A DNA stretch of 64,000 bases from the sequence record PQ505080.1. The stretch is one strand, 5' to 3'. The DNA comes from Escherichia phage HMD-6. Positions 60,946 through 61,044 of the stretch are shown piece after piece (positions within the stretch are counted from its first letter, which is position 1; each line of letters starts with the position of its first letter). The position numbers and the translations under genes are program-made. The notes under the pieces are model-generated. The model had not been told where the DNA came from and did no database searches. It saw nothing but the letters and a program-made list of their open reading frames with translations.

Positions 60946-61044
60946 GCTAGGTAAGCCCTTTGGCAAGGGCGAGGATTTTTAATCCTGAAAATAGACGAGG
61001 TAGTCGTTGAATACATAGGTGGTTCGATTCCATCACCTAGCACC
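60946..61044 (+). tRNA. atypical 99-nt tRNA-like gene (anticodon uncertain, possibly TTT)
   Basis: Perfect 7-bp acceptor GCTAGGT/ACCTAGC, D arm GCCC/GGGC, T arm GGTGG-TTCGATT-CCATC; about 48 nt between D and T arms. Confidence 0.45.

Follow-up and report, generated by a model that had tools for sequence, protein, structure and literature searches.

Between tRNA-Ser(UGA) and tRNA-Thr(UGU) in the tRNA cluster of Escherichia phage HMD-6 lies a gene for an unusual tRNA-like RNA (60946–61044, plus strand), hereafter the element; positions refer to the window, the whole 64,000-nucleotide stretch of sequence record PQ505080.1 that was analysed (Table 1). The original prediction of a tRNA-like gene within a tRNA cluster is borne out by ARAGORN, by a match above threshold to the Rfam tRNA model (RF00005; 35.5 bits, gathering score 29) and by the neighbouring tRNA genes. 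ARAGORN calls exactly the boundaries first proposed ("tRNA-??? (atcc)"), and no standard prediction places the 5′ boundary elsewhere: ARAGORN, Rfam and tRNAscan-based GenBank annotations share the same 5′ end. The RNA reads GCUAGGU-AA-GCCCUUUGGCAAGGGC-G-AGGA-UUUUUAA-UCCU-G-AAAAUA-GACGA-GGUAG-UCGUU-GAAUACAUA-GGUGG-UUCGAUU-CCAUC-ACCUAGC-A-CC. The terminal A of CCA is not encoded and T follows CC, giving a 3′ end of A73-C-C-U.

The acceptor stem and T arm are canonical, as predicted; the D arm is not fully so, since it is able to form 6 bp with a 4-nt loop and is preceded by A at position 8. It can also be read as a 4-bp stem with an 8-nt loop; the 6-bp/tetraloop form appears in every minimum-free-energy fold, but its two extra U–A pairs never vary and thus give it no support from covariation. 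D and T arms lie 47 nt apart (60971–61017), and the claim that this gap is too long for a type II tRNA holds for comparison with the class II tRNAs here: the variable region alone takes up 30 nt, and the neighbouring tRNA-Ser and tRNA-Tyr total only 91 and 87 nt. Both hairpins described in the gap exist, with the correction that the outer G/G of the first (AGGA-TTTTTAA-TCCT, 60972–60986) is a mismatch (60971, 60987) and not a pair. Rfam places UUUUUAA on the anticodon loop and counts 26 nt of the variable region as inserted sequence. We rejected the parse offered by ARAGORN (four-base anticodon 'atcc', stem AUUUU/AAAAU), whose pairing is kept in no other genus. Folded without constraints, the element adopts a five-arm cloverleaf as its minimum-free-energy structure (−34.2 kcal/mol, z = −3.66), equalled by none of 200 shuffles.

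Homologues were recovered by BLAST and motif scans, amounting to 38 distinct sequences, and an alignment of 21 of these was used to build a covariance model (R1) and to test covariation over 23 pairs and 474 cells. Standard pairing is found in 100% of the cells, all four stems covary and compensatory double changes occur at 10 pairs. The covariation score of 0.375 compares with a column-shuffle mean of 0.138 (0/500 shuffles reach 0.375), and slid controls give ≤0.088. Compensatory changes affect four acceptor pairs, covariation is seen at three of six D-arm pairs, and the T-arm pair 51:63 is UA in 16 sequences and CG in five. The tertiary pair between D-loop position 19 and T-loop position 56 is GC in 14 sequences and UA in seven; because G19:C56 switches jointly to U19:A56, the tRNA elbow, and with it the L shape, is maintained. 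All 37 foldable homologues give the five-arm cloverleaf as their minimum-free-energy structure with a variable hairpin in each, a hairpin that is unrelated in sequence between clades and that shows compensatory A:U to G:C changes in Av-05 and TH18.

Nine Vequintavirus haplotypes vary at 5 of 97 columns in the element, compared with 24 of 98 in the upstream spacer and 6 of 76 in tRNA-Thr, and all five element changes are structure-neutral (a loop base, G–U to G–C, or U–A to U–G). Judged from these sequences, the element is a real gene for an L-shaped, selectively maintained, tRNA-shaped RNA. A pseudogene in decay, a relic of recombination and a tRNA with an intron are all highly improbable readings. 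Its length, its unencoded CCA and the frequency with which annotation pipelines miss or mislabel it would fit a relic, and phage V18 shows that the locus is deletable: a deletion there leaves a hybrid of the tRNA-Tyr 5′ half and the element's 3′ part, from GTCGTTGAATACATAGG on (locus L006, 1151–1240), and removes tRNA-Ser and the intact tRNA-Tyr and element genes as a natural knockout. The covariation, the switch of the tertiary pair and the genus-level purifying selection nevertheless exclude the pseudogene that the original prediction had entertained, and the element is retained in a Vequintavirus tRNA set reduced to seven genes (relatives have 17–24 in the stretches examined). An intron, raised at the same time, is excluded on three counts. 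The insert forms a conserved hairpin between invariant flanks within the variable region, every relative retains it, and at 30 nt it is too small for a group I intron, which would exceed 200 nt and interrupt the anticodon loop; Rfam gives no intron family match for the element.

The model separates the family cleanly from ordinary tRNAs (79–115 bits against ≤31 bits). The element scores 97.7 bits and is the sole copy in the window; a weak match at 53658–53743 on the minus strand (17.7 bits, E = 0.02) is a terminator-like GC hairpin with a U run, not a second copy. The phage is a Vequintavirus (an rV5/Murica-like coliphage): its tRNA cluster is 98–99.5% identical to those of Vequintavirus genomes (rV5, Murica, BASEL phages), and the element is present in 119 of 128 matching phage records (coverage ≥80%). 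Further members occur in Avunavirus (Av-05, TH18), Seunavirus (PVP-SE1, SSE121, GAP31, 4MG and others), Mydovirus (Klebsiella, Raoultella and Proteus phages), Henunavirus (Erwinia phages Hena1 and pEp_SNUABM_01), several metagenomic phage contigs and one N4-like Salmonella phage of the Schitoviridae, UTK0002. This spread over four further genera and a Schitoviridae phage indicates horizontal transfer. The 3′ motif has no exact match in the genomes of 185,579 bacterial and archaeal species. A first 5′-motif scan with CCTTNGGNAAGGNCGNGG was non-specific; a second gave 73 loci, of which the 60 new ones yielded no new member when searched with the model, and these 5′-motif scans found no family member lacking the ...ACATAGG-T-arm motif. 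A search for a parent tRNA gave no clear donor (core identity to 153 phage tRNAs flat at 0.70–0.77), and, apart from the loop, the element does not specifically resemble E. coli tRNA-Lys. Separately, 18 'Campylobacter phage' records (MG065644–MG065690; host C. jejuni) carry a cluster 97–98% identical to that of Vequintavirus, a match that suggests mislabelled or contaminant coliphage genomes.

ARAGORN detects this RNA in Vequintavirus and misses it in all other genera, and Rfam either misses the relatives or returns tRNA-Sec matches of 36–39 bits, below the threshold of 47; for Seunavirus, Mydovirus and Avunavirus no Rfam tRNA match is reported at E ≤ 0.01. Public labels comprise tRNA-Lys (AAA), tRNA-OTHER, "tRNA-Asp|Gly", tRNA-???(atcc), tRNA-TERM and hypothetical protein, and many of the records listed leave the element unannotated. 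Nor is it among the six tRNAs given in the founding rV5 paper (PMC3606486), and our literature searches found no description of a long-arm tRNA-like RNA. The family is a previously undescribed, mostly unannotated group of phage 'long-arm' tRNA-like RNAs; the element belongs to the tRNA superfamily and fits no named subfamily.

The family is defined by a 7/5 acceptor/T branch (present in all 21 aligned sequences), A8, a D arm able to form 6 bp and a tetraloop, a short anticodon arm bracketed by an invariant G...G, and a variable region of 30–40 nt composed of invariant linkers and a clade-specific hairpin. G1:C72, A8, U14, U15, A20, A21, A37 and the T arm are invariant or nearly so, as are the two central G:C pairs of the anticodon-like stem, and the G...G flanking that stem is found in 38/38 sequences. 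In the variable region the first five nucleotides (GAAAA) and the last seven (AUACAUA) never change, making 12 invariant single-stranded nucleotides that are better conserved than the 'anticodon', while the hairpin between them falls into at least four unrelated sequence types with the helix kept in each. The complement of the conserved linker, CCTATGTATTC, occurs in the window only at the element itself, giving no antisense target there. The linker GAAAAUA (window 60988–60993 and family-wide) also contains AA^AU, the cleavage motif of ToxN, and the Vequintavirinae phage phiTE is known to escape ToxIN via an RNA mimic; the variable-arm linkers may thus be connected with type III toxin–antitoxin nucleases.

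The anticodon-like loops are 5–8 nt long and clade-specific: UUUUUAA in Vequintavirus, UUUAUAA in Avunavirus, (C/U/A)AUCAA(A/G) in Henunavirus, UTK0002 and the metagenomic contigs, and CC(A/C/U)(U/G)CCAG or CCCUCAAG in Seunavirus and Mydovirus. The triplet is UUU in the window copy and UAU, UCA, UCC or GCC in relatives. Discriminator A73 is present in 4/4 distinct Vequintavirus sequences and confined to this UUU clade; elsewhere the base is U73 (U or C in Avunavirus). Outside Vequintavirus and Avunavirus, U73 is followed by an encoded CCA, except in the UNVERIFIED GE_vB_MG record (U73 then CAA), and these members begin 2 nt after the CCA of the preceding tRNA. Vequintavirus copies have no complete CCA, and Avunavirus copies no encoded CCA.

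In its workings the element is most like a class II tRNA (Ser, Leu, Tyr), with which it shares a fifth helical arm between the anticodon and T arms, the 7/5 branch, a canonical T loop (T54-Psi55-C56...A58) and the G18–G19 elbow contacts. Class II tRNAs differ in joining their hairpin almost directly to the core, whereas the 30–40-nt family variable region interposes invariant single-stranded linkers of 6 and 9 nt; family anticodons are not those for Ser, Leu or Tyr, and A8, the absence of nucleotide 26 or a 4-bp anticodon stem, and the possible 6-bp D stem set it further apart. Selenocysteine tRNA (tRNA-Sec, RF01852) likewise has a long extra arm, its 6-bp D stem and 4-nt loop correspond to one possible form of the family D arm, and the CAUCAAA loop of some relatives recalls the CUUCAAA of E. 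coli selC. Its acceptor is 8 bp (8/5, 13 bp in all) and its discriminator G73, where the family has 7 bp (7/5) and U73 or A73; relatives moreover have A33 in place of U33 and stay under the Rfam tRNA-Sec threshold, and the window anticodon is UUU rather than UCA. The stable RNAs 'species 1 and 2' of T4 and the Bacillus cereus tRNA-Other are likewise tRNA-like small RNAs encoded among tRNA genes, possibly processed or charged non-decoders; they show no sequence or architectural similarity to the element, a comparison made through Rfam only, with no matching family. In architecture, the element is like the allo-tRNAs (Mukai et al., NAR 2017, PMC5389517), which share the long variable arm, a common U73, a wide range of non-cognate anticodons (UAU, stop), location in polycistrons with other irregular tRNAs, and doubtful use in translation; their Sec-like D stem and tetraloop match one possible form of the family D arm. 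Allo-tRNAs have an 8/4 or 9/3 branch and longer anticodon stems and come mainly from Acidobacteria, Clostridia and Proteobacteria (PMC5389517), as against the 7/5 branch, shortened anticodon arm, invariant variable-arm linkers and restriction to Enterobacterales phages seen here; the window copy, with A73, also departs from their G73/U73.

Table 1. Positions of the element, its parts and surrounding features (window coordinates, unless a locus or record is named)
Feature	Position	Strand	Detail
Whole tRNA-like gene	60946–61044	+	97 nt through discriminator A73 (61042), plus encoded CC
Acceptor 5′ strand GCUAGGU	60946–60952	+	Pairs with 61035–61041 ACCUAGC; 7/7 pairs held in 21 homologues
Positions 8–9, AA	60953–60954	+	A8 instead of near-universal U8; AA or AG in family
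D arm GCCCUU-UGGC-AAGGGC	60955–60970	+	Includes G18, G19
Anticodon-like arm	60971–60987	+	G–G mismatch (60971, 60987), 4-bp stem AGGA/UCCU, 7-nt loop UUUUUAA
Anticodon-like loop UUUUUAA	60976–60982	+	U33; U34-U35-U36 = 60978–60980; A37, A38
Variable region	60988–61017	+	30 nt: AAAAUA, hairpin, GAAUACAUA
Variable-region 5′ single strand AAAAUA	60988–60993	+	
Variable-region hairpin GACGA-GGUAG-UCGUU	60994–61008	+	5 bp
Variable-region 3′ single strand GAAUACAUA	61009–61017	+	
T arm GGUGG-UUCGAUU-CCAUC	61018–61034	+	Rfam alignment and covariation
Acceptor 3′ strand ACCUAGC and discriminator A73	61035–61042	+	
Candidate sigma-70-like promoter TTGACA-17-TAATAT	60390–60418	+	Consensus match only; upstream of cluster
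tRNA cluster	60477–61289	+	Seven co-oriented genes; element between tRNA-Ser(UGA) and tRNA-Thr(UGU)
tRNA-Arg-UCU	60477–60551	+	CCA encoded
tRNA-Tyr-GUA	60556–60642	+	87 nt, CCA encoded
tRNA-Ser-UGA	60757–60847	+	91 nt, CCA encoded
tRNA-Thr-UGU	61050–61125	+	5 nt downstream of element, CCA encoded
tRNA-Met/Ile-CAU	61127–61201	+	CCA encoded
tRNA-Pro-UGG	61213–61289	+	CCA encoded
Rnl1-type RNA ligase	55533–56468	-	Pfam PF09511, 1.5e-14
P-loop (polynucleotide) kinase	56512–56979	+	AAA_33, 1.3e-10
Metallophosphoesterase	56882–57541	+	Metallophos, 4e-7
phrog_9325 gene	L017 11671–12279; L154 5553–6209; UTK0002 record 67552–68157		
Irregular tRNAs in relatives	L015 5848–5932, 5994–6079 (PVP-SE1); L162 6466–6551, 8187–8273		
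Irregular tRNAs in Mydovirus	L137 524–598; L146 451–525; L149 928–997, 2598–2672		

An RNA-repair-like cassette (55533–57541) lies 3.4 kb upstream of the tRNA cluster, and its homologues in phage Bas59 are annotated as RNA ligase, polynucleotide kinase and phosphoesterase, the set that T4 uses to repair PrrC-cut tRNA-Lys. A Sir2-family protein (54416–55177, minus strand) adjoins it. ARAGORN finds no other tRNA-Lys in the window phage. The CAU tRNA of the cluster is read as Met by ARAGORN and most records and as Ile (AUA, implying lysidine) in the BASEL annotation. Metagenomic contigs and phages of Seunavirus, Mydovirus, Henunavirus and the N4-like Ithacavirus carry, 0.1–1.9 kb from the element, a gene for a 202-aa coiled-coil protein, phrog_9325; as a co-transferred partner it is not a strict one, being undetected in Vequintavirus and present in N4-like phages without the element. 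The relatives encode further irregular tRNAs: tRNA-Asn(GUU) of 85–86 nt and an 87-nt tRNA-Trp(CCA), class I identities with an inserted variable arm and normal anticodon loops, and one tRNA of 86 nt whose anticodon loop has 8 nt (ggca). Class I tRNAs may have gained arms repeatedly in these phages. In Mydovirus, the tRNA directly upstream of the element is 75 nt long and has an anticodon loop of 6 nt (ARAGORN 'ga'; annotated tRNA-Ser); another tRNA of the cluster, with loop 'gt', measures 70 nt.

For the Vequintavirus element we tentatively favour, at something short of even confidence, a role as a phage-supplied surrogate for host tRNA-Lys in a conflict with anticodon nucleases. LysRS recognizes its tRNA through U34, U35, U36 and A73, a set that is complete in the window element (loop UUUUUAA, compared with CUUUUAA in host tRNA-Lys); because the full set is presented in a 7-nt loop with U33 and A37, we infer that LysRS would charge the RNA with lysine. 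The element would be part of the cluster transcript, from which RNase P and trimming of the 3′ end would free it, and the host CCA-adding enzyme would finish its ...ACC end. Once charged, it would replace the host's single tRNA-Lys(UUU) species, working beside the phage's own ligase/kinase/phosphoesterase cassette, and the extra arm might act as a clade-specific handle or shield. The long-arm tRNA-Asn(GUU) and tRNA-Trp of relatives, class I identities with normal anticodon loops, also speak for such a role. Host tRNA-Lys(UUU) is the commonest target of E. coli anticodon nucleases (PrrC, PARIS AriB, Schlafen RorSlfn5) (PMC10264068, PMC11464382, PMC12409363, PMC13056530), while PARIS AriB also cuts tRNA-Thr(UGU) and tRNA-Asn(GUU) (PMC12409363). 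The repair cassette suggests that this phage lineage is exposed to tRNA cleavage. Coliphages that encode tRNA-Lys(UUU) are reported also to encode the ligase that repairs it after PrrC has cut it (PMC10264068), and T5 tRNA-Lys restores infection under PARIS (PMC11464382).

The anti-PARIS tRNA-Lys(UUU) of T5 (PMC11464382, PMC12409363) has several traits in common with the element: a phage-encoded UUU, C41 beside the AriB cut and an adjoining tRNA-Thr(UGU). Element C41 is the equivalent of the T5 A41C ("Mut2") change, which lowers AriB cleavage (PMC12409363). The T5 molecule is, however, a canonical 76-nt class I tRNA with the decisive U39A, in contrast to an element with a huge extra arm that keeps U39 and the UAAUC motif. 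Apart from C41, evasion of PARIS AriB at the sequence level is not supported: the element retains the AriB recognition motif, U36-A-A-U-C with U39, and the phage tRNA-Thr(UGU) retains an exact, host-like AriB site.

Those two retained sites also weigh against the surrogate reading as a whole, as do a number of structural points. No member among the 38 sequences has a canonical anticodon arm (5 bp and a 7-nt loop); the arm is always 1–2 nt short. In the window copy it consists of G–G, 4 bp and a 7-nt loop, or else of 5 bp and a 5-nt loop, leaving it one stacking layer short and without nucleotide 26. Of the canonical tRNA features the element fails U8 (replaced by A8), nucleotide 26 with a 5-bp anticodon stem, and an encoded CCA, the last in the company of six neighbouring tRNAs that all encode theirs. 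Nor is the class I architecture of tRNA-Lys, with its 4–5-nt variable loop, matched by a 30-nt variable region, and this arm might clash with LysRS, a class II enzyme that comes to its tRNA on the side of the variable loop. A single evolutionary event underlies the link between A73 and UUU, and V18 is viable despite its loss of the element. Most relatives have 6- or 8-nt loops without U33, and Seunavirus and Mydovirus UCC copies coexist with a canonical tRNA-Gly(UCC) in the same genome; such odd loops and duplication indicate that the shared function of the family is not ordinary decoding.

These last features suit a tRNA mimic that does not decode, a close rival reading that we regard as possible but hold with some doubt. 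Here the L-shaped scaffold and the invariant flanks of the variable arm would bind a host or phage protein, and the clade-specific anticodon stem-loop would imitate the particular host tRNA that comes under attack or is sensed (tRNA-Lys in E. coli). Outside translation, the RNA would act on a nuclease that targets tRNAs, or on another defence factor that binds them, as a competitive inhibitor or as a decoy, the latter in line with the original prediction. In keeping with this, the anticodon arm is non-canonical in 38/38 sequences with loops of varying length, the 12 flank nucleotides outdo the 'anticodon' in conservation, the UCC copies duplicate a tRNA that the genome already has, the Vequintavirus/Avunavirus clade has lost the encoded CCA, and the element has moved horizontally into an N4-like phage in the manner of accessory anti-defence genes. 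The retained AriB motif, UAAUC|C, resembles a minor AriB substrate and would suit a bait, and some viral tRNAs have been suggested as competitive AriB inhibitors (PMC12409363); many allo-tRNAs with similar features are apparently unused in translation (PMC5389517). Against a mimic stand the U73-CCA encoded by the members outside Vequintavirus and Avunavirus (bar the record noted above) and the change of discriminator to A exactly where the loop becomes UUU, which together suggest that recognition by an aminoacyl-tRNA synthetase matters. No partner protein was identified, and no demonstrated phage tRNA decoy was found in the literature searched. We consider it rather doubtful that the whole family is a non-decoding, tRNA-shaped scaffold, and hence a new class of phage non-coding RNA, in which the invariant A-rich linkers and the clade-specific hairpin would bind or bait a nuclease, defence protein or phage enzyme and a swappable anticodon stem-loop would set the host tRNA that is mimicked.

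Recoding in the manner of allo-tRNAs seems improbable. Charging of the RNA would then not depend on the anticodon (SerRS, for instance, might act through the long arm), or the relatives with 8-nt loops would read quadruplets, resulting in programmed missense, nonsense suppression or +1 frameshifting. Those 8-nt loops resemble classical frameshift-suppressor tRNAs. The UCA-type members score best against Rfam tRNA-Sec and are annotated tRNA-TERM in Erwinia phages, so the 'suppressor-like' character once suggested for the element applies to such relatives but not to the window copy, with its UUU. Further allo-tRNA hallmarks in the family are the long variable arm, a possible Sec-like long D stem and tetraloop, mostly U73, and diverse anticodons including UAU and UCA (PMC5389517). 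The branch, on the other hand, is 7/5 and not 8/4 or 9/3, U33 is missing from most such loops, and the window copy has A73 and a 7-nt loop. Position 2:71 is C:G, unlike the G2:C71 of E. coli tRNA-Ser, and serine at AAA/AAG would harm the phage's own proteins.

Compensation for codon usage is the traditional explanation of phage tRNAs (PMC3606486), and several GenBank records do label the element tRNA-Lys (AAA). An ordinary tRNA-Lys whose extra arm is a neutral insertion is nonetheless distinctly improbable, because in E. coli both Lys codons are read by a single tRNA-Lys species, with a median of six tRNA-Lys(UUU) genes; and an insertion free to drift is hard to square with invariant flanks and a hairpin kept by compensatory changes across genera.

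The rV5-like phages and their relatives have been isolated widely, and both BASEL model-collection members and candidates for phage therapy are among them. Their long-arm RNAs depart from several nearly universal features of tRNAs (U8, nucleotide 26, the lengths of anticodon arm and variable region) yet keep the L shape, including the rare U19:A56 pair, and so constitute a natural experiment on the limits of tRNA-fold remodelling. Should the element prove to be a nuclease-resistant lysine tRNA or a decoy, it would be a new device in the conflict over tRNA-targeting immunity (PrrC, PARIS, retron Eco7, Schlafen, Septu), testable at once in E. coli K-12 with existing phages and the natural deletion mutant V18; as a non-decoding bait, it would be the first dedicated tRNA decoy in phage counter-defence.

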